The notes under the pieces were generated by a model, which saw only the letters and a program-made list of their open reading frames with translations, did not search any database and was not told the DNA's origin. The translations under genes were made by a program, and so were the position numbers. Shown piece by piece: positions 8,272 through 34,600 of a stretch of 64,000 nucleotides of DNA. Within the stretch, counting starts at the first letter, position 1. Each line of letters opens with the position of its first letter. Source of the stretch: a virus (lineage: Duplodnaviria; Caudoviricetes); IMG/VR virus record IMGVR_UViG_3300028833_000141, positions 12,579 through 76,578 of that record; one strand, given 5' to 3'.

Positions 8272-9471
8272 TTAAGCCACCTTCCTTTTACATCGTTCTT
8301 TAGGATGTGATTTATAATATTCCCTCGTTAATTTATAACCACCGAATAATTCATTATATAATTTGATCATATTTCTTGCTGCATGGAAACTATGCGCAAT
8401 TTTAGAATGCGCAAGCCAAGACTGCATGGATGTATAAACATCATCATAAGTCATTTTGCCTTCTTTGACTTTGTTTACATATTTTTTCATTTTTCTACGC
8501 ATACGGATGATTCCACCCTGATCGAGTTTCTTAACAACTTTTCCGGTATCAGTTATATAATATTTAACTTTAAGAAACGCAAAACCTTTACTTGCCTTTG
8601 TAATGTATGTTTTCTTTTTATTAAAATGCATACCATACTTAGCTATTTGTTCATGTAATTCTGCCATTATCTTATTCAACACTTGTTTATCATTATGAAT
8701 AATAATGCCATCATCCATATAACGTATATAAAACTTGATTCCTAATTTATCTTTAATATAATGATCGAATTTATTAAGAACTGCTAAAGCCATGATTTGA
8801 GAAATCTGACTCCCTAAACATATTCCAACATATTCATGGTTATATAATTTCTTTAGTTCAATTTCTCGTTTCTTTTCATCTTTAATTTGATTAATTTCTA
8901 TCAATTTGTAAGATTCGATTATTCCCATAATCAAATTTATAATTCTCGTATCTTCAAATAATTCCGTTAATACTCTATAGCATTGTTTATGAGGTATAGA
9001 ATCAAAATAACTTTTTACATCAAACTTTAAAACGAACAGATCATTAGTTCTATATCTGCGTTTGGCTTTTTCAATAAATAGAGCCGTTCTTTGACGAGCA
9101 AAATCTACACCTTTACCTTTCGTACTCGCACCATTATCATATATAAGTTTTCCTTTAAGGGCTGGTAATAAAGCATAATCACAGATAACTCTTTGAATAA
9201 CTCTATCTTCCATGCATATCGGTGTAATTTTTCTTTCTTTACCTCGTTCTCTTATAAAAATATACTTTTTATTTTGTATTTCAGGTATTAGACCAGATAA
9301 AATTATATCTATAGAATTATCAATCTTGAAAATTGGTAGACAACTATAAGATTGAACGCTATATTTGTAATCAACTGATGCATGGCATTTCTTTAAAGAT
9401 ACGAACGCATTTTTATGTTCAAATAATTCTTCTAATGTAATTTTACATTTCTGTTTAACTTTGGTTTTCAT
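8272..9471 (-). CDS. DGR reverse transcriptase
   Basis: KFDVKSYFDSI, GICLGSQISQ (DGR-type LGxxxSQ), YIRYMDD, SWLAH; 399 aa with no maturase or endonuclease domain; adjacent to TR. Confidence 0.95.
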   Translation of the reverse strand: MKTKVKQKCKITLEELFEHKNAFVSLKKCHASVDYKYSVQSYSCLPIFKIDNSIDIILSGLIPEIQNKKYIFIRERGKERKITPICMEDRVIQRVICDYALLPALKGKLIYDNGASTKGKGVDFARQRTALFIEKAKRRYRTNDLFVLKFDVKSYFDSIPHKQCYRVLTELFEDTRIINLIMGIIESYKLIEINQIKDEKKREIELKKLYNHEYVGICLGSQISQIMALAVLNKFDHYIKDKLGIKFYIRYMDDGIIIHNDKQVLNKIMAELHEQIAKYGMHFNKKKTYITKASKGFAFLKVKYYITDTGKVVKKLDQGGIIRMRRKMKKYVNKVKEGKMTYDDVYTSMQSWLAHSKIAHSFHAARNMIKLYNELFGGYKLTREYYKSHPKERCKRKVA

Positions 9472-10049
9472 GGTAATCTCGACTAATTATGATTAAAGTA
9501 AACCTCTCTATCCGTTGTGGCATCTATATTTGTATGTTTGTTAGATGCTCTTGCCTAAACGCAGAATTTGCCGAAAAATAAACAATAAAAAATACTGTCA
9601 TAGGCAGCATTAAATACCGATTTATATTTCATAACATACAAGACAAATTCCCTTGTTATACCTTTAGGTTTCACAACCGCCTCAAATTAGAGTGGCGTTG
9701 AAAAATTATTCTTTTTCAAGTATATTTGTCAACTTTAATTGAAAGGTTATGATTTCCTTCAATCGGTAGATTGCTTTGATTCTCCACAAATAACAATATA
9801 TTGTGGCGTGCAATCATTCGCCTATAAAGACTACTTAATTACCGCTCGAATCCGACCACGACACCATTGGTGTTGTTCGCGTTGTTGTTGTTGTTCGGAT
9901 TGCCGTTATTGTTGACATTCATAAAGTTCGTAGAGTTGGAGGCATTCGGTGAACGCTCCCACCAATTGTTCGCACGAACCCAATACAAGGCAAAGCAACT
10001 CACACAGCGAGCATTTTCATGATCAAATCATAACCTGCTGATTTATAAT
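9472..10049 (-). ncRNA. DGR template RNA region (post-avd segment, TR and ~375-nt spacer)
   Basis: Non-coding gap between avd and RT containing TR, several hairpins and a 12-bp inverted repeat (9744-9755/10025-10036) bracketing TR. Confidence 0.7.
9848..9984 (-). repeat. DGR template repeat (TR)
   Basis: 137 nt with 18 AAY codons; aligns to 11034-11173 with mismatches almost only at TR adenines. Confidence 0.97.
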
Positions 10050-10922
10050 TTAAAGTGCAGAGAATCTTTTCTTATCAGATTCTTGCACGGACAATAACAT
10101 CTTAGTAGTTTGCTTTATGCATTTAGATGTTCTTTTCTGATTTTTATTAGAAACATCATTATACATAAAGACTTCGCCAAGAGGCTTATTTAGTTTATAC
10201 AATAAAGAAATTGCTGCTGAAAATAAACCTTTTCGTCTTAAATAATCATCTTTCGTTTCAGGGTTTATATTATTAGCAGTATAAGCATTTGCAAAACACT
10301 CAATTGCCAAATCTTTTGCAATCGATATTTCACAATCCCTTTCACTTTTAGGCAATTCCTTCCTGATCTTATTTATATATCTTGATAGTAAATATAAATT
10401 TAATAAAAATCTTGTTTTCTTGATTTTATCGTAATTATATGCAAACATCCTTTTAAATTTGATCTTTGTTGATTTCTTTTCATCGAGAGCTTTAGCTAAT
10501 CCGTATATTAATGCAGTTTCTTTATTGATGATTTCAGCTAAATACACGCGACTATGATAGGGTATTGGTTTAAGACTTGTTTCTGTAGAAGAACTTAAAT
10601 TCCAATAATAATAAAAATATTTAATCAAATCATCAAATTCTGAGAGAACAGTTTTACATAAATCAAATCTTTTCTTATTTCTTTTCTTTTTAAATTCCGC
10701 ATTGTTCTTATCATCTGCATCATAGACACAATATAAATTATTAAGTTCTAAAATATCTTTATAAATATTATTTGCGATTTTCATAATTGGCTTCGAAATA
10801 TCATCTTGATATTTCGGAGGAATATTCCTCACTTTATTCTTAATTTCTTTATATACTCTATGATGATAATTATGAGAGTATTCAATAGTCGAAACTCTTC
10901 TATTATTCTTCAATATACTCAT
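10050..10922 (-). CDS. avd: DGR accessory protein Avd, apparently two tandem four-helix domains
   Basis: Lies between VR and TR; basic; two Avd-like blocks (IPPKYQDDISKPI..ELN and LPKSERD..LA..TAN); ends ESDKKRF. Confidence 0.75.
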   Translation of the reverse strand: MSILKNNRRVSTIEYSHNYHHRVYKEIKNKVRNIPPKYQDDISKPIMKIANNIYKDILELNNLYCVYDADDKNNAEFKKKRNKKRFDLCKTVLSEFDDLIKYFYYYWNLSSSTETSLKPIPYHSRVYLAEIINKETALIYGLAKALDEKKSTKIKFKRMFAYNYDKIKKTRFLLNLYLLSRYINKIRKELPKSERDCEISIAKDLAIECFANAYTANNINPETKDDYLRRKGLFSAAISLLYKLNKPLGEVFMYNDVSNKNQKRTSKCIKQTTKMLLSVQESDKKRFSAL

Positions 10923-10951
10923 TTTATTTCCTTTATTTTCAACATAATAAA

Positions 10952-10985
10952 TCGCTGACTTTTACCGGACTGTAAAAGCCAGCGA
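10952..10985 (-). promoter_or_regulatory. Hairpin/cruciform downstream of VR (DGR target-recognition element and/or terminator)
   Basis: TCGCTGACTTTTAC-cggact-GTAAAAGCCAGCGA, a 14-bp stem with one G.U, 40 nt after the target stop. Confidence 0.65.
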
Positions 10986-11024
10986 CTACATTTTTGTTAA
11001 TAATTCCTCAGATTAAGAGGGAAA

Positions 11025-14000
11025 TTAGATTGAGAAGCCGACCACGACACCATAGGCGTAGTTCGCGGCGCCGTAGTAGCCGTACGGATAGCCGTAAAAG
11101 AGGACATACATAAAGTAAGCAGAGTAGGAGGCATACGGTGAACGCTCCCACCAAAAGCTCGCACGAACCCAAAGACCACCATCATTAGCAGCAATTAAGT
11201 TGCCATCATTCAATCTCCAGAATCCCATACGAGTATGTTTAGCTTTTGTTTCTGCGCTAACATAAATATACCCTATACTTGAATTACCAGTATTAATCCA
11301 AATATCACCTTCTTTAACAGAACTACCTGTATATGCGGTAGGATCGGTATTCCCCGTATAGTATTCAGCATCTTCTGGAATAATAAACCCTGGAATCTTA
11401 ACCCTTGATTTATCAGATGTGAAGAACGAAATAGCAGTACCTTCATCCGAATATGGCTGACTTGTCCAACCGCCAAGCTCTCTGTTCGCAGGAAGATATA
11501 ACCTATCCTCAGAAGTAACAATCTCAGAAGATTGATTACCTGCTGATGCGTTAATCTTAACTGTTTTAATGATCGATTGCAGCCAATACGGAAGTCCATT
11601 CCAAACAAAGGTATTGAGGAATGTTCTCATTTCTGATTCATCCCAACCGCCAACATTTGTTGCAGTAGGATTCATTCTATGAAGCAAAGCTAAAGGATTA
11701 TTTGCTATCCACGAACTGTTGGTTTTTGTACTGGTTTGTCCGGCTAATCTATAACGATCAGCACCAGCAAATTCCATACGCTGTTTCTGATGTGGGAAAG
11801 ACGCAAGTTTGCGTGCGATTGTGTCTCCCAAATCATCGAACCAAACTTTGCACCAATGTATCCAGCCTTTGCCATAATAATCATGACCGCCATCACTGAA
11901 TCTAACAGCACCTAATGCGAGTTTCATACTTCCGCTCGTATCTCTTGTTCTGATAAGCTCCGTAACAGTTATTGCATCATTATATGTATCAGCATTTAAG
12001 TTGAATGTATAAACAAAGAGATGTGATGAACCTTTGGCATGTCTTAATACAACAATACCTCTCGTATCTGCATTTCCAACATTTACTGAGCGATCTCCCC
12101 ATTGTATAGTAGGGTTGCTGCTATATCTAAGTCTGAATCCCTCATTACCGCTCTCATCGAAACAAGAGACTAATGTTGCACCACTCTCATTTGTGTTCAA
12201 GAATTCAAAATCGATAGCCATAGTAAATGATGGCGAATCTTCATCAAATAAAGTAAAGTTGGTATCAAGATATTGAGTACCATCAAAATATCTATCTGTG
12301 ACAATAGTGTTTTCCTGAACATTATTAAATGTGAAATCAGACCCCATTGTAAATTCAAAGAAGTCTTTATCTTCAAAATAGCTACTTGCCATACCGGACT
12401 GGCATACTCCATACAGTTCTGCTGGACTCATATCACTTGCTTCTGTGCCAGCGATAGGACGTTCTTTTCTATCCCATACAGCGTATACATCAGTATCGCC
12501 TGTGATAAATCCTGTGCTCTTATCCCACTGTAAGAATACATTATAGATATATGAACTCTCTTCATCCGTTCTTGTAGGAATATCGCCTGAGTAATCAACG
12601 CATTCACCATATTCTGCGGTCTGTGTTTCCAATGGCAGACCTGCTCTTGAATACCATGTTACCGTGTACTCTCTGACTGTTGTGCTATAGACCGCCTTAA
12701 TAGATGTGGCTGCAAGAATCGCAGAATCTAAAGTATCCCATCCAGAGAAAGTATAATCATATTGTGCATCACTTTCATGTACAGGTGTAGAAATCCATCC
12801 TTCTGTAACCGGATTAGGTGGATATGAACCTCTATCCACATACCATGTGAATAAAATAGTAGTTTCATCATCATTATAATAGGTTACAAGATACTGAGTA
12901 ACAAGATTTCGTGGGTCATAAGTTACATCGAGATCAGCCCAATAATGAGTATAATTAAGAAGTTCCTGATTCCTTATCGCACCGCTGATATAAACATCAC
13001 CACTCAGCAAAGAACTATTCATAGCGATACATTTATTAAGTAAAACTGTATCTGGCAATGTCCAATCTATGCCGAGAATACGGATTGTTTGAAGTGTGTT
13101 TACTGCTGTCTGTAAGATCGATAAGGCATCAATATTTGAATATTCGCATATAAAAGTTTCCAGATTTGCGTAGCTTGCTACTACTAAATCTGTAAGATAA
13201 TTAATATTTCTAAAAGAAAGAGTTGAAATAGTTTCAGGCAAATGCGCTTTCTGCAATTTACCATTTGTTGCGAAAGATACGGCAGATATAGAAGTTCCTT
13301 CCGCATAGAAATTGAGTAAGTTAGCACAAGCTGTAAGGTTAACTGATCCCGTAAGGTTAGGGCAGTTTCTTACATCGAGCGTTTCAAGAAGAGTATTATT
13401 ACCCATATTCAATGTAGTAAGGAATGAGTTTTCGTATCCTTCCGTAGTATTACCAATAACCAAAGTTCTTAATTTAGAAGCCTTTGAAAAATCATTATCA
13501 TGTATATAACAAGCAGATAAATCGTTAAGTGCTTGTATCCTGGATGCACAGTAAATAAGAATTGCCGTATCATCCATTTCTGTGAGAGTTGTTGTTATTT
13601 CGTATTCCTGTCCGGCTTTCGCTCTAATTTGTTGTGGGTTAGAAGAGTTTCCGTAACGGACAGTTAAATACATATCGGAATAAGGAACAATTCTAAGAGT
13701 ATAATCAGGCTCAACAACTACACCGGATTGTGGAGTATTACATCTGAACATAATCTGATCAGCGGTAATGTTTGTTCCGATATATTTTGTTCCAATATAA
13801 GCCTCTTGATCTCTCTCGAATTGCCTTCTTTGGTATTTCTTTCTACCATTCATCATTTCATTGAGGAATCTGATAGTGCCACCTTGATATGTTCTGAGAT
13901 ATTTTCTCTCAATATCAAGCCGCCATAATTCCTCTGGGAATTGTGATTGCCATGCATCAAATTCATTGATAAGAGAAGTTGCGCTCCAACAATTCAAACT

Positions 14001-17000
14001 TTCTCTACTTCTGTACATGGCTTCAAGTTGACTTCCCATGAGGTTACGGATTCTGCGCCAAAATACATTTTCAGCAGCATTATAGATAAAGCCGGAAGAT
14101 GGATTTCCTTCTTGCTTATAATCTATATCTTCATGTCCGTAAGTCATTGTAAGCTCACCTGAGTTATTACATTCTGTTACTTTTATGACCTATTAAAAAA
14201 ATAGGCGAGAGAGGTTCTTCCAAAAGTGTCTTTACACTTGACCTCTCTTCTCGTGTTTCATTATTAAAAGGATTATTTCACGAGTTCAGACTATTGCATC
14301 ATCCTAAGATGTTCCTTCGCTTAGTCGTTGTTCCTCCATATATAAGCAATAAAAAACTCATGCTTTGCACGAGATTAAAGATGAATATATGGTTGGAAGG
14401 CGTTGTCCGTCCTTTCGGAGTTTCGCCGTATATCAGAAGGAATTTTTTATACTTGGCACAAATAATCTATGCCAAGTGCCGTGTCAAAGTCATAACCCCA
14501 TAAGTCGAAACGATAACCGTTATTTATCGCTGCTTTGGCATTATTGATAGTATAATTACGAGCATCAGAACCCATTTCGGTAGCTTCGGCTTCTGTGATA
14601 TAAGTTTTACCGTAGTGCCAGAATGTATTCTTAGCTCTGTTATCAATCATTGTGTATCTTTCAGTAAACAGATACCAATAAAGCGGTGATTCAGATATAA
14701 ACCAATCATCAATTTCTGATACAAATTCAGCGTCAGTCGAAGTGATAACCCATTCATACATATCGCGCCATACCTGTTTTGACGCTTCTTGCTGTGCTTC
14801 GATCTCCGCACTTGAAATTGTCTCACCGTCTTTTGTTCCCATATCATATCTAAACTCAAACGAATCATCCCATGCTTCATATAGAGATTGGCGTTTCAGA
14901 TTGTTCTCATTATTCCATTGTTCAGAAGTAATAGGGTAAACCATAGAAACACCCTCGTTAGGGTCATAAGTGATTTCATCATTTTCGTCAAGATAAACAC
15001 CAGTCTGAAACCAACTGTTAGGAAGTGTATTATCTGATACCTCGACAACAAATTCTGCTAAATCTGTCGGATCATTTACACGAGTGTTATCAGTTTTCTT
15101 TGAATCTCCAATATTTCCAATTCCATAGAAATGCCAGCCTGTATCGGCAAATTCTCTATGAGTAGAAACATCAGGATCACTTTCTTTAATAAAGATAACG
15201 CAGTTGCAAAATTCCATTGAGTTTTTAACAAATGGATTTCGCTTCTGTCCTGGCGTTTTATAAGGAATATAATCATTAAATCTCTTTTGGAGAAGGGCAT
15301 TATTCGCATTCTCAGAACTTGCGATATTCACCTTGATATTAAACCAATCATTAGGTACGGATGTACGAGTCAATGCGACTTTACCGCTACCATCTGAATA
15401 TTGTGTCCCATCGCCAAGCGTAAGTTCTGTAATATATGTTGAGTCAAGCGGAATCTTACTTACGACTTGATGTTCGCCATCAAAGCCGAAGATAATATCA
15501 ATATTTCTTCCTGCATAACCGTATTCATTTGATGTAGTTCCTTCAATTTGTTATCCTATAAGCTTTTTATCTTATAGTTCTAATAGTTACAATTCCTATT
15601 AGTTCAGCATATCTTTTCACCCTCGTTATAGCGTTAGGTTTGCAGTTCGCTAATCTGCTCAAATCACCCTATATGTGATTGTGCTGCGGACTCGTGGGAA
15701 GATTATATTCTGCTATGCAGTTTCACTTCCTATGCGTTGCGTGTGACTATATTGTTACACATAGCCTTCCACTCTGATTTGCATTTCAGCATCCCAGATT
15801 TCTTCCGCAGTAAATATATCTATATTTCTATAGATAGTGGGTAAGTTTTTCGCCCAGCATGATAACCATTGACGAATCTCCAATTATCTAAAATAGGATC
15901 ACCATTTTTATGAATACACTCAACATTCGTATATTTAACATAGTCCTTTTTATCGTTAGTAAAATGAGGACAATCGATTTTTATAACTTTCAAATCCGGA
16001 CAAGCATTAGCAACCGATTCCGGTGTTAATGTATTATTCTCGTCATAGATTTGATTTCTCTCATATCTTGCAATCATTGTTTCTGCGTCTGGCGCATCAG
16101 CAATAAAGTTCTTCAAGATATTTGAATCGGTCAAAGACGAAGAGTATGCTTTCATTCTATAAATGTATACATCACAATCATCTGAGCCGATAGTGATAGG
16201 AACAGGCTGATACTGATAAAGTCTGTGTGCATCACTATAAAGCATTGGACGAGCAGCAACACCATCCTCGTAACTCATAATATATGATGTCGCATCTTCA
16301 TTTTCCGTATCAAGCGGATTGATATTAAACTCATATTCAATAATATCCTCTTCGCTGTAAGGAGTATAAAGATTATCAGTTGACGAGTACAGATACGCTT
16401 CGTGAGCGTTCATCTTTAATCCAACCTTTACATTATCCTCAGTAGGATAACAAGACAGGAATGTGGTCTGATTATCCCTGACATTCATTGTCTTGAATCT
16501 AACCTTAAATTCCGCACCGGATTGTTTAGGATCATTAGCAAATAAGTTATAGCTAATATACGCCCTTGTTCCAGCCTTTACGCAGAAATATTGATTTCCG
16601 TCAGAATCAAGATTGTAACCACCGTTATTCCAATCGAAGTTTTCAGATACAGACATTTTGACATTAGCATTATTAGCATCTTGCCAAAGCCTGTTTGCGC
16701 TACTATTAGACATTCCAACAGGGTTAAAATCAAATTCGAGATTTGCTGTGACAGGGGATATATCGTATCCAAGTTCTGCAACATCAACCTTGATGGTTAC
16801 TGATGTAGCACCGCAAGTAATTGTCAATTCATGTAAAGCAATTTCTTCTGACTTGAACGCCCATGTATTAGCGTATGAAGATAATCTCAGAGTATTAACA
16901 ATTTCACCGTCTACTGATAATGTAACAGATGGGGTAGTAGTTCTTGGATCAAAAACAACATAAGGAATTGTAACGGTATTATACTGTTTCGCTTCAACTT

Positions 17001-19275
17001 CACCATAATGATCGTATCTGTAAATACAGCCGATAATTGGTACTGTAGATTCCGAATCGTACCACATAATATCCTTGAAGATATGTTCTGTTTCAATTTC
17101 TACATTATTGATTTCCGCTGTCATCCAACATTCAAGTAAATGTGCTCCATGTGCTTGTGATGGGAGAGAATATGACTGTAATACGCCGGATGCAGAGGTT
17201 GTTACAGATGTTAATTCAACGCCATCAAGCTTGAAATGAACAGTTTTTTGAATCGCTCCATAAGGTGTATATGTAAAGTTAACCGCTGAACCTACAGGAT
17301 AAGTATTCCTATCGCTGAAATTTGATTCAAGTCTTACATCCGTTACTTGAACAGTCCAACTCTTTACATTGATAGAGCCGCCTTCGTCTGTGACAGTCAG
17401 CGTAAACTTCTGACTTCCAATAGAACAATAATCAGTAATATCAAAGGTATTTCTGCCTTGTACAAGGTTTCCGCTCATAACCGTTGTTGAGCCACGTTTA
17501 ATTGTATATGTACCATCTACATATTCATTGTCTGAATCTGTCGATGAATAATCAATAACAATCAGAACAGGATCAGTGGTAGTACAAATAATAGGGGATG
17601 GGGTGATCTTATCTACAACAAGATTTGTAGTAGAACTTGAACCGCCACCGCCACCACTCGGAAGTGTGAACTGACTTTTTACTGTTTCTGTCGAACCATC
17701 GACTTCATATAATGTATATACATAAGTCTGATTATTTTCAGTCGTTAATGTCGCATAGTATGAAAGTCCTTCAACATCAATAGAATTGATTTGTTGTGCA
17801 AGCCTTTCAAGTGTTCTGCTCAGTCCTGTAATATTCTGCGTATTAACACTTACTTGGTCATTAAGTGCGCTTGTCATTACATCGATTTCACTCTTTGTGT
17901 AAGCATCTGAACCGATAGGACGGAAAGCATTATTAATCCATCTATAATGCTGATATAATCCTGCTGAGTTCAGAACATAATAATCAGTATATTCGTTTCC
18001 GCTTTCAGGAAGGGCAGATAATACTTCTGCTACTGAACCACCAACGATTTCCCAATATCCTGAGATATATTTATAGTAAATATAAGTTCCGTTATTTGCG
18101 AGAATGTAATCTGTATCTTCATCACCGACTTCTGGCAATTCAGTTACTACTAATGTTGTTGCGCTACCGAATGTATCCCATCTTGATACATTATTTTCAT
18201 CTGTAATCCACCAATATTTATCAAAACTGCCTGATGAATTTGGTATTAAATAGAATGTACGATTTTCTCCGACCGCTGGCAGTTCATTAACAATTGTGAT
18301 TGAAAATGCGTCATAGTCAGCTAATGCAGCCTGAGTGTAGTTTCTCGCAAGCATCAGTATGCCTTGAAGCGCATCATGCAGATTATTATAGGTGAGCGTA
18401 TCGCTTACTTGATAGGCTGCTCTGACAATACTTGCCAAATTATCAACGTCAAGTTGTACTGCGTCAGCCTTTGCTTTTGCATAATCGAATATATCTACTC
18501 GTCTGTTCTGAGGGTCATAGACAGACGGTTGCATAGCATTATCTGCTTTTACAAGCGTTGATTCAAAATCGGTATCGACTTTTGATCTTGATAAAGTACC
18601 GTCTGCAATACTCAGCGCAGCCATAGAACCAGAAGAAATGAGTTCAGCAAGTTCAGCCTGTACAGCATCATCAATAGCATTTGCGATAACATCACTGTTT
18701 TCAAGTGCGTCAAGCTGTTGTGCCATTCTATCGACTTGTGCCTGAGAAGCCTTTAATGATAATGCACTATTTATACTGTTGATGCTTGTTCCAATATCAT
18801 CTATATCCGACTGATCCGCTTTTGTATTAATCTGTCTTTGTAATTCTCTGTCGGCTGCAACTAACTCAGCAGAGTTTTGTTCATTCCATGTAGTAAGATT
18901 ATTTACTCTTGTTACAAGCTGTGTATATAATGATTGTGAAATATCTGTACTTTGAGCATCAGACACAAGAATATTAGGATCAATATTCAGAGTTAAATAA
19001 TTTGTAGTAGCAATTACATCTTCATCACTACCATATAACATAACGGTGCAAGTTCCAGGTTGTATTTCCGATGGTAAATAAGCTCCGTTATCCTCATCGA
19101 GATAAACATTATAAAATACTCCCTCTTGACCAAACTGAGCGAATGTAGTAAGACTATCCCATTCGCTTGGTAAATTAAATACCAGCTTTATAAAATTTTG
19201 TGTACCTTCAATAAGTGTTTTAAGGTTTGTCGTAACTTTTAATTTTTGATTAACGACAGCTATTAAAATTTCCAT
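11025..19275 (-). CDS. DGR-targeted tail fibre/receptor-binding protein, 3 exons (19275-15852, 15543-14469, 14169-11025), 2547 aa spliced
   Basis: Exons sum to 7644 nt = 2548 codons in frame; junctions restore HAGQGTTS and ALGINNSG. Contains BppU-like N-term, CotH-like, LRR-like, B-repeat-like, LamG-like and DUF6273/CLec-like C-terminal regions. Confidence 0.88.
11034..11173 (-). repeat. DGR variable region (VR) at the 3' end of the target gene
   Basis: About 25 substitutions at TR adenines, 1 G>T and one extra codon versus TR; GC-rich GGTGTCGTGGTCGG near the 3' end. Confidence 0.97.
14170..14468 (-). mobile_element. Group I intron (299 nt, no ORF)
   Basis: P1 ACUUGGCAU/GUGCCAAGU with U.G at the splice site; R CAACGACUA, S AAUAGUCU, P3 UUCCUUC/GAAGGAA; ends in G; removal restores the frame. 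Confidence 0.92.
15544..15851 (-). mobile_element. Group I intron (308 nt, no ORF), variant: C.A at the 5' splice site, P7 GCAUA/UAUGC
   Basis: P2 with GAAA loop, P3 CUGCGGA/UCCGCAG, P6a GGCUAU/AUAGUC, P9 hairpins, terminal G; removal restores the frame (C+AA = Gln). Confidence 0.82.
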
Positions 19276-31600: not shown

Positions 31601-34600
31601 AAACGATTTGACCTTGCCGCTTTCCTGCTAATTTTTCTAATAGTCGAGCTTGTTGTTTGTCAGTAAGATCATCGTATATTTTAGAAATATCTCTAAGTAA
31701 ATCTACGGTAGATTTATACTCAGTTTTATTTTTATCAGTAAATAAGGATATGCCTTCCGGATGATCAGCAGTTTTTGTAAGATCGGCTATATCTCCGGAG
31801 AGTTGTTCTACACCGCCAATGTATTGTTCGGTCTCTTCATCATATCCTCTGATACGCATTGATAATGTTTTCAAAGCTGTCAATCTGTTACTTTCCCATA
31901 TTCTAATGGTACTGACCATCATTTGATGGCGGTTAGTCATTTCTGGCTAACTCCGCAATTTCATGATTAGGTTATAGTTGCGGTTCGGACTGTATCTTCT
32001 ATGAATGGCTGAACCAACTACATTACTGTATTTGGTATTACAGTCTCTACGGATTCTGTATTATTGTATTCATTTTTTATATAGAAGGATTACAATAATA
32101 CAGTCTTTCCTCGGTCTATGCCGCCTCCGGCTTTTGACCGATATAGCCATTTTTATTGTCGGCAAGCTGTTTACCGACACTTGCAGCATCCCTTGTGACT
32201 TCTGTAGCTGCTGTTCCCAGAGCTATTGTTTCATCAAGAGTGTTGTTTGCGGCAGCCATAGCTGACGATGATCTGGTTAAAAACTCTACAATGTCTTGAT
32301 TTGATACTGCTTGTGTGTTCAAAAAAATCTGTTACTTTCACCTTTAATTGAGGCTACTGACCATATTCTTATATGGCGGTAAGGACGTTAATCCTTACTC
32401 TCACGTTTCTTTTTTAATGAGTTATAGCGTGAGTTCAGACTATATATTCATCCCAAAGAGGGAGGATAACTTCACAATACTTGTTACCAAGTACCGCCTG
32501 TAGTCGTTACGGATTCTAAAAATTTATCTAATTCTTCCTCTATTTGTTCTGTGTTTTGAGTATAATTTAATCTTAATAATGGAATTTTATTATCATTACA
32601 ATAATTGTTTTTAATATTATCTCTTATTACCATTAATTTATAACTCTCTTCTCCACCAAACCATTTAATAGGTTCAAAGTGTTGTTTTCCATCATATTCA
32701 ATTAAACCAATCACTTGTTCATTTTCATCAATTATTGCAAAATCAAATTTCAATTTATATGTGTATCTACAATCAGCAAATGTATATTGTGGAATATGCC
32801 TAATATTATGACTATTCATGTAATGTTTTATTATTTTCTCTCCTTTTGATGTGATCTTGCAACCACAAGAAGTAGTGGAATTATCATTTATATTAGCTGG
32901 CAATGCAACAAATTCTTCATGGCATATCGGACATTCAAACCACCATAACCATGTTCCATTTTCATTCTTTTTATATGGTGTAATTGCTTTAACCCCACAA
33001 TCAGAAACAAAACCAGTCCAATCTTTTGTACTTGTCTCAGTTATTCTTTCTTTATTATAACAACCGCAAGAAGTCGTATGTCCTGTTTGAACATCATTTT
33101 TATTATAAATACCAATTGTTCCGCAGTCACAACGACATTTAACCTTTGGTCTCTTTTCATTCCATAGCGTTTCTAAAACAAGTAGTCTCCCAAATCTTTG
33201 ACCGTCAATTTCTTTGCCAAATGTTCTTCTCATTACTTCCTTTTTCATACATCCACACGAAGTTAATTCTGTGCTTGCTTTTCTTAATGGATATGCTTGC
33301 CTTATCACTTCATTACCACAATCACATTCACATAAACAAAAAGTCTTTTTATTTTTATAATTTGGCAACATTTCTTTGACAACTAAATGTCCATATCTAT
33401 TGCCAACCATATTTATAACACTAATAAAAAATCACCTCCTTACAAGGGGTGATTAGATAAATTTTTAGTCTTTCCTCGGTCTATGCTGCTCCCAGCGTTT
33501 GACCGATATAGTTATCTGCTAAAATCCATTTCGGATTTCCATACGTTACCGTATGTTTCGGCAACACTTTACCGATTTTGTTAATTTTACTTGCGACTCC
33601 ATCAAGCGCATCGCTGGCTTCGATTTTATAAGCCTTCATTACGGAGATTAATCCGTCATTAGCTTGCTCGATCGTCATGCCAGGAGATATCGATTTGAAT
33701 ACACTCGATACTTCTGACATTGTTTTGGAATCTTCCAGATTATATCCAAGACGCGACCAATCCGCTGCACCTTGAATAATATCTTTAGTAGTAGTACCAA
33801 ATTTCTTAGCACTATCATTTGCTGTAAAATAAAAATCGTTCAACTGCTTTCCTGTAGCTGAACTTGTTTTCTTTAAATCAACGAGAGCATCATCGAGTGC
33901 CACAACTTCATTGATTCCTGATTTTATCGTTCTTATAGAACCATATATAATTGTCGAAGCACCAACATAATTTGATAGTTTACTGAATGCACTTTTCATT
34001 CTTGAACCGAAAGTTACAACATTCTTTCCGGCAGCTTTCGATTCTTGACTGATAGTGTTAAATCTTTCGTTAATCCTTTTTAAGTCAGACGAATTGACCT
34101 TGCCGCTTTCGCTTAAAGTATTCAATTCATTTACTAATCTTCTAACTTCTGCACCATATTCTTTAGCAGCCTTAGTGCCGGAGTTTAAGAATTGATTCAT
34201 CTTGTTTTGAGATGAAGCGATTTGTGATGCACTCGCAAACTGTTTCATTTCAGCAGAAACACTCGATATTTGATTCTTAGTAGTTGTTAAAAGTGCATCA
34301 TACTCTCTATACTGATTTACAAGTTTACGAGAACCATCAATACCATTCGATTCAGTTGTACGCATAGCCGTTGCCATTTGTTGCAACTGATTGATATTAG
34401 ATTGAATAGTAGTATTTAATGTATTGCCAGAATTTGCAATCTTATCATAGTTCGCCTTAACTGATTGTAAATCAGAGTTTAATTTTCCAGTATTGACCGA
34501 TTTTAATGCTTTGTTGTAATCAGAGAGATATTTGCTAACATTATTGCTACGCCAAGAAGAACCGCTTTTTGTAGCCTGTTGCATACCATTCTTTAAACTT

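Follow-up and report, generated by a model that had tools for sequence, protein, structure and literature searches.

A phage diversity-generating retroelement with a probable tail-protein target split by two group I introns

How is the target of a diversity-generating retroelement (DGR) made when its gene is broken into three open reading frames (ORFs), and do the interruptions bear on its diversification? Both questions are raised by a locus in IMGVR_UViG_3300028833_000141, a 76.6-kb virus record (Caudoviricetes) most probably assembled from a sheep gut sample, of which a window of 64,000 nucleotides (nt) was analysed; coordinates are positions in this window unless a related locus is named. 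An earlier note on the window had proposed that two self-splicing steps fuse the ORFs into one tail protein and place ribozyme activity upstream of DGR-diversified host range. We consider it likely that the DGR diversifies the lectin tip of a single protein of 2547 amino acids (aa), made once two introns, which homed independently of the DGR and later became endonuclease-less, are spliced out. The proposed link between ribozyme and host range was not supported.

The retroelement and its interrupted target

On the minus strand the cassette reads target with variable repeat (VR), hairpin, avd-like gene, template repeat (TR), spacer and reverse transcriptase (RT), in the order and at the coordinates given by the earlier note (Table 1). 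TR and VR differ by 26 substitutions, 25 of which fall at TR adenines (hypergeometric P 4e-15), bearing out the remark that the two differ almost only at adenines. The sole other substitution is G>T, and VR is longer by one codon in an AAC run. Similarity between the repeats ends directly past a common TTC, where the initiation of mutagenic homing sequences (IMH and IMH*) diverge, and the hairpin follows. The intact DGR-type RT adjoins TR and is 35-55% identical to RTs of relatives that themselves adjoin TR/VR pairs; with the adenine-biased TR/VR pair, this places the element among the DGRs. It resembles the DGR of Bordetella phage BPP-1 (mtd-avd-TR-brt) in gene order, adenine-specific changes from TR to VR, the hairpin after VR and a predicted C-type-lectin (C-lectin) tip, but differs in that Mtd is far shorter than the 2547-aa kinase-bearing target, introns are present only in the window target, and Avd has 290 aa compared with 128 aa in BPP-1. 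The DGR, apparently complete and of architecture B1, is likely to be working and would still be active. No VR variants were found in contigs of the likely source run (depth ~8; contigs lose rare variants), and a promoter scan gave no excess over shuffled sequence. Perfect 12-nt complementarity (10036-10025 and 9755-9744, minus strand) flanks TR on both sides.

Removal of 15544-15851 (308 nt) and 14170-14468 (299 nt) joined the three ORFs in frame into a coding sequence of 7644 nt with a single terminal stop, spanning 19275-11025 (minus strand). Only 1 of 910 and 1 of 780 cuts ending in G restored the junction peptide of homologues, and these unique cuts, which establish the exact junctions, are those that the earlier note had chosen. 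Intron-less homologues, suggested there as a check on the fusion, do exist: in ~30 of 40 related IMG/VR loci the region lies in one unbroken ORF, which measures 2100-2800 aa when complete and shares the junction peptides. In addition, the three ORFs align colinearly to phrog_14959, a PHROG profile with 2494 positions. Over 9700-19241 the window is identical to a contig from the run that is its likely source, which excludes assembly error as the origin of the inserts; the identity lends no independent weight to any other point. In the DNA of contigs from two other studies, the sequences flanking intron 1 or intron 2 are directly joined, and close relatives therefore have empty alleles. In four of the homologous loci (L014, L018, L030 and L035) in-frame TAG codons break the frame under table 11, which suggests, on sequence grounds, that TAG is recoded in these phages.

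A Shine-Dalgarno-like word upstream of the ATG at 14147 would suit a different outcome, in which the inserts stay unspliced, three separate proteins are made and the 1040-aa ORF beginning there is the real DGR target. That word is, however, part of the coding sequence (for Gly-Glu), and most homologues lack it; the homologues are single ORFs, and the start would lie inside the C-lobe of the kinase domain. We regard this outcome as highly improbable. An internal start at 14147 was rejected, as it is not conserved in homologues.

Table 1. Features of the retroelement, its target gene and the introns of the window
Feature	Position	Strand	Description
Target exon 1	19275-15852	-	aa 1-1141 + 1 nt; BppU-like N-terminus, beta-rich middle, CotH kinase start; phrog_14959, phrog_19695
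Intron 1	15851-15544	-	ORF-less group IA; P7 variant GCAUA/UAUGC; 5' exon ends in C; terminal G; z -4.2
Intron 1 internal guide sequence	15845-15838	-	A at 15842 opposite last exon base C
Target exon 2	15543-14469	-	1075 nt; CotH-like kinase core
Intron 2	14468-14170	-	ORF-less group IA; P1 with canonical U·G, P3, P4, P6, P7 (GACUA/UAGUC), P8, P9 extensions, terminal G; z -5.0
Target exon 3	14169-11025	-	Kinase end, leucine-rich-repeat (LRR) region, LamG-like part, C-type-lectin-like tip (DUF6273) with VR
CotH-like kinase domain (approximate)	15996-13749	-	aa ~1094-1640; both introns inside
VR	11172-11034	-	139 nt, inside target C-terminus
Hairpin	10986-10951	-	15-bp stem + 6-nt loop, 3' of VR; DGR hairpin/cruciform-like, also terminator-like
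avd-like gene	10922-10050	-	290 aa, isoelectric point 9.65
TR	9983-9848	-	136 nt, 42 A, AAC-rich
TR-RT spacer	9847-9472	-	
DGR RT	9471-8272	-	399 aa, YMDD intact; RVT_1 E 9e-18; phrog_1423 E 2e-66
Tape-measure intron	~33570-32320 or 32329	-	308-aa endonuclease ORF 32484-33410; 3' end ambiguous
Tape-measure intron	32173-31882	-	Group I
Tape-measure intron	29498-29166	-	Rfam 95.6 bits

Domains and family of the target protein

Exon 2 is the most conserved stretch of the target, 83-86% identical to intron-less homologues, versus 61-74% elsewhere in the gene. The model of one homologue (L011) matched Bacillus cereus CotH (5jd9/5jda) with a Foldseek E of 3e-8 (Z 19.9, root-mean-square deviation (rmsd) 3.8, 345 residues aligned), and one family member has a Pfam CotH match (E 1.4e-5). 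On this modelling, the exon-2 region is a CotH-like kinase. A profile of the kinase gave no PDB sequence match, and no relative of the kinase exon was found among GenBank phages.

The virion-anchoring role that the earlier note assigned to the N-terminus is met by a resemblance to BppU_N clusters (score 0.94), which is a lead only. The best match of the C-terminal model (pLDDT 71) was the N-terminal domain of IgAse (9qa6; Z 14.3), followed by TvpA (2y3c; Z 6.6, rmsd 4.1, 133 aligned) and many C-lectins including Mtd (Z 4.5-5.6); these values are consistent with a C-lectin fold but middling, and a Foldseek search with the same model gave no match at E 0.001. The gene sits in a tail module, after tape measure, distal-tail-like and Prophage_tail genes. 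The product is likely to be a tail protein and would be located in the virion. Relatives occur in contigs of Lachnospiraceae and Clostridiales metagenome-assembled genomes.

The target, which has a CotH-like kinase and ~2000 aa or more with a C-terminal VR amid phage structural genes, belongs by domain content and context to a described family, a point that the earlier note missed. Category f1 of Wu et al. 2018 (PMC5758913) comprises phage DGR targets of great length that combine CotH, LamG and C-lectin parts. The same family is PC_00012 of Roux et al., who proposed a role in host signalling (10.1101/2020.04.01.020958), and CotH/LamG/C-lectin targets are mentioned, and called unstudied, by Benler et al. 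2021 (PMC8008677). The likeness extends to the CotH-like kinase, the LamG-like part, the C-terminal VR in a predicted C-lectin and the avd-TR-RT order (B1), whereas the window target lies in three exons and its Avd has double length. Term searches of these three papers turned up no mention of introns in targets.

The avd-like product fits an Avd in gene position and isoelectric point and matches phrog_3206 (E 8e-4) over its C-terminal half, but gave no Pfam match and, as a profile, no PDB sequence match. Double-length Avd proteins (260-290 aa) are common to most DGR-bearing relatives, and in one of these (L022, 11668-12468) the two halves align with each other at 28% identity (E 7e-12). The halves of the window protein gave no BLASTP alignment to each other. 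Comparison with its relatives suggests that the window protein is probably a tandem two-domain Avd. The Avd of locus L034 has normal length (134 aa).

Folds, splice sites and spread of the introns

By its fold, each insert is a group IA intron, with the ends that the earlier note had given it. Intron 2 carries the helices, the U·G pair and the terminal G expected of group I introns, and has relatives at the same site; it matched RF00028 with 23.5 bits (E 0.0027), under the cut-off of 50. For intron 1, covariation in an alignment of 35 members of its type establishes the fold: P3, P4, P5, P6, P7.1, P9 and P9.1 are supported, 96.6% of cells are paired, both-side changes occur in 34 of 45 pairs, and slid controls reach 32-43%; the invariance of P7 in this alignment is partly built in by how members were searched. 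The P3-P9 core with its P3/P7 pseudoknot is present, P7 retains the G-C pair past the bulge (the guanosine site), and the terminal G at 15544 is accompanied by a P10 of 3 bp, as in orthologues, of which some have 5 bp. No match to RF00028 was obtained with intron 1 or, at E 0.1, with six relatives, and this model is known to be incomplete for group I introns (PMC11878797, PMC6125680). The 3' motif of intron 1 was found in >119 IMG/VR viral contigs. The same P7 variant and flanking motifs occur in the gyrA introns of Bacillus phage AR9 (KU878088, a three-piece coding sequence) and in the gyrA region of Yersinia phage phiR1-37, which differ in host gene and in having a longer P9 region. Since the AR9 introns are annotated, the subfamily was already known, although existing models capture it poorly.

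In group I ribozymes the pair at the 5' splice site is nearly always U·G. Intron 1 departs from this: its pair, whose non-canonical nature had been overlooked in the earlier note, is C·A in the window and C-G in 17 of 17 orthologous loci. Exon 1 ends in C because the Gln codon there is invariant. Two observations back the register of P1: GGG encodes the upstream Gly in the window and all 17 orthologues, compared with 7 of 41 alleles empty at site 1, and the P1 pair four bases upstream of C·A has changed from G-C to U-A in a compensatory manner in the window. Moving the 5' splice site so that the exon ends in U did not restore the homologous peptide in any case. A C-type splice pair is a known kind of exception, and intron 1 is still filed as a group I variant. 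Hur and Waring reportedly described, in 1995, a few natural group I introns with a C-G 5' splice site, likewise with a C at the end of the 5' exon; in contrast to the phage lineage here, those introns are reportedly fungal. In mutant ribozymes, C·A is said to be able to stand in for the U·G wobble (Doudna, Cormack and Szostak, in 1989). Another member of the subfamily (L118, 4310-4581), in a terminase-like gene, has its exon-end C opposite G before a Gly-Gln junction and is an independent C-type splice site; U·G is present in the remaining short members that were inspected.

Seventeen other loci, representing ~8 distinct sequences, carry an intron at site 1, in most cases of 870-900 nt and with a NUMOD4-HNH ORF inside P9; at site 2 four loci do, both with an ORF (1.1 kb) and without. 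Endonuclease-bearing alleles thus stand beside the empty ones at this gene. A 444-nt site-1 intron with an HNH ORF remnant (L162, 1362-1806) is intermediate between full and ORF-less forms. Three further intron sites occur in homologues (aa 1213, 1280 and 1496), and all five (with aa 1142 and 1500) fall within the kinase domain, the most conserved part of the gene. Judged from motif spacing, site 1 would be the equivalent of the Gly-rich loop and site 2 would lie just past the metal-binding Asp motif. The aa-1496 site is that of L034, a second complete DGR with an intron-split target (9279-10312 and 13190-15500; 2260 aa), where a 1034-nt intron with a putative endonuclease ORF lies 14 nt upstream of window site 2. 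Directly 5' of intron 2 (14495-14475, minus strand) the window reads WGYDFD compared with WDYDND in nearly all homologues, with the two invariant Asp kept; the sequence is possibly an escape from endonuclease homing to the aa-1496 site.

Three more group I introns interrupt the tape-measure gene (34770-25614, minus strand), whose joined product has 2426 or 2429 aa. A GGT codon precedes each of the three, and the frame would therefore survive exon skipping there. All five introns of the 76-kb record lie in tail genes. The window also has one tRNA gene (58462-58380, minus strand) and a tyrosine integrase-like gene (35831-34785, minus strand).

On the reading that we favour, a large tail protein with CotH-kinase, LRR and lectin parts would be anchored in the baseplate, and the DGR would diversify its C-lectin tip. 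The kinase would have been invaded, independently of the DGR, by two mobile group I introns that homed into its best conserved motifs, and both would have lost their endonuclease genes afterwards. Late mRNA would then lose both introns, intron 1 with C·A replacing U·G, to give the 2547-aa protein. Several points weigh against this. Neither intron scores above the Rfam gathering cut-off; C·A is found in the window phage alone among 18 site-1 loci, and it is possible that the pair impairs splicing rather than restoring wobble geometry; the queries used biased intron-site sampling toward the kinase exon; and splicing itself we infer from sequence rather than from transcript or peptide.

The solitary C·A pair could thus mean that the guide G-to-A change blocks splicing, leaving a recent pseudogene or only a truncated protein. 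A loss so recent would leave the exons unmarked, and the two unusual substitutions in WGYDFD would agree with it. The three exons are, however, open and conserved as in relatives, the neighbouring compensation in P1 suggests selection on the helix, and C·A may mimic the U·G wobble; we consider a crippled intron 1 improbable.

Introns and diversification

Eleven of the 13 family members with TR, VR and RT have an intron-free target, the exceptions being the window and L034. At the other loci with a site-1 or site-2 intron, no RT or TR/VR pair was found in the fetched DNA, which is short in several. Retrohoming acts on DNA, and the VR lies ~3 kb downstream of intron 2. Together with the three additional introns of the tape-measure gene, the distance and the many intron-free DGR relatives argue against ribozyme activity standing upstream of DGR-made host range. 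The DGR RT as the cause of intron gain or loss is not needed, as endonuclease-bearing orthologues exist at both sites.

Could splicing have been domesticated nonetheless? A switch tuned by C·A might gate or split production between a short anchored protein and the full kinase/lectin fibre; if this were true, C·A would set the full-length fraction, and a ribozyme would thereby adjust the amount of DGR-generated host range carried by the virion. The location of all five introns in tail genes would suit such control, as would the predicted 1151-aa product of unspliced RNA, which retains the BppU-like N-terminus. Phage group I introns can undergo exon skipping, as in Twort orf142 and in SIOphi (PMC11878797). 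Like the target gene here, the tail tube gene orf142 of Staphylococcus phage Twort (cited in PMC11878797) is a virion structural gene that contains several group I introns, but it is not a DGR target, and exon skipping in the window yields no in-frame product. Skipping of exon 2, tried as a route to a kinase-less fibre, is out of frame and gives 1149 aa, and both the unspliced product and the half-spliced one (1506 aa) end within the kinase fold. Useful isoforms are unlikely because the truncations end inside the kinase and exon-2 skipping shifts the frame. With most DGR-bearing relatives intron-free, and intron-bearing relatives lacking a DGR in the fetched DNA, we rate a domesticated switch as distinctly improbable. 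No link between DGR and introns beyond the shared gene was found; the pattern fits ordinary homing, not DGR control, and splicing would be a cost of parasite upkeep rather than a control step in diversification.

The DGR type, the target family and the intron parasites were already known. What is new is the intron-split DGR target, in the window and L034, and the splice-site lineage from C-G to C·A. Titles and abstracts on DGRs and group I introns held no intron-split DGR target, in agreement with the earlier note, most subscription papers lying outside the search. DGR surveys, which take whichever called ORF covers the VR as the target, would record here a 1040-aa protein that lacks kinase and anchor, so that the target is likely to be mis-annotated as an orphan, as had been predicted. 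The intron 1 subfamily is common in gut phages, judging from its IMG/VR hits, and RF00028 missed every member tested. Within one phage intron lineage there is a natural series of U·G, C-G and C·A at the 5' splice site, testable in vitro, in which the C-type site is forced by the invariant Gln codon. Finally, five independent sites in conserved motifs of CotH suggest strong selection on a predicted phage kinase, for which exact repair of the mRNA would be needed.

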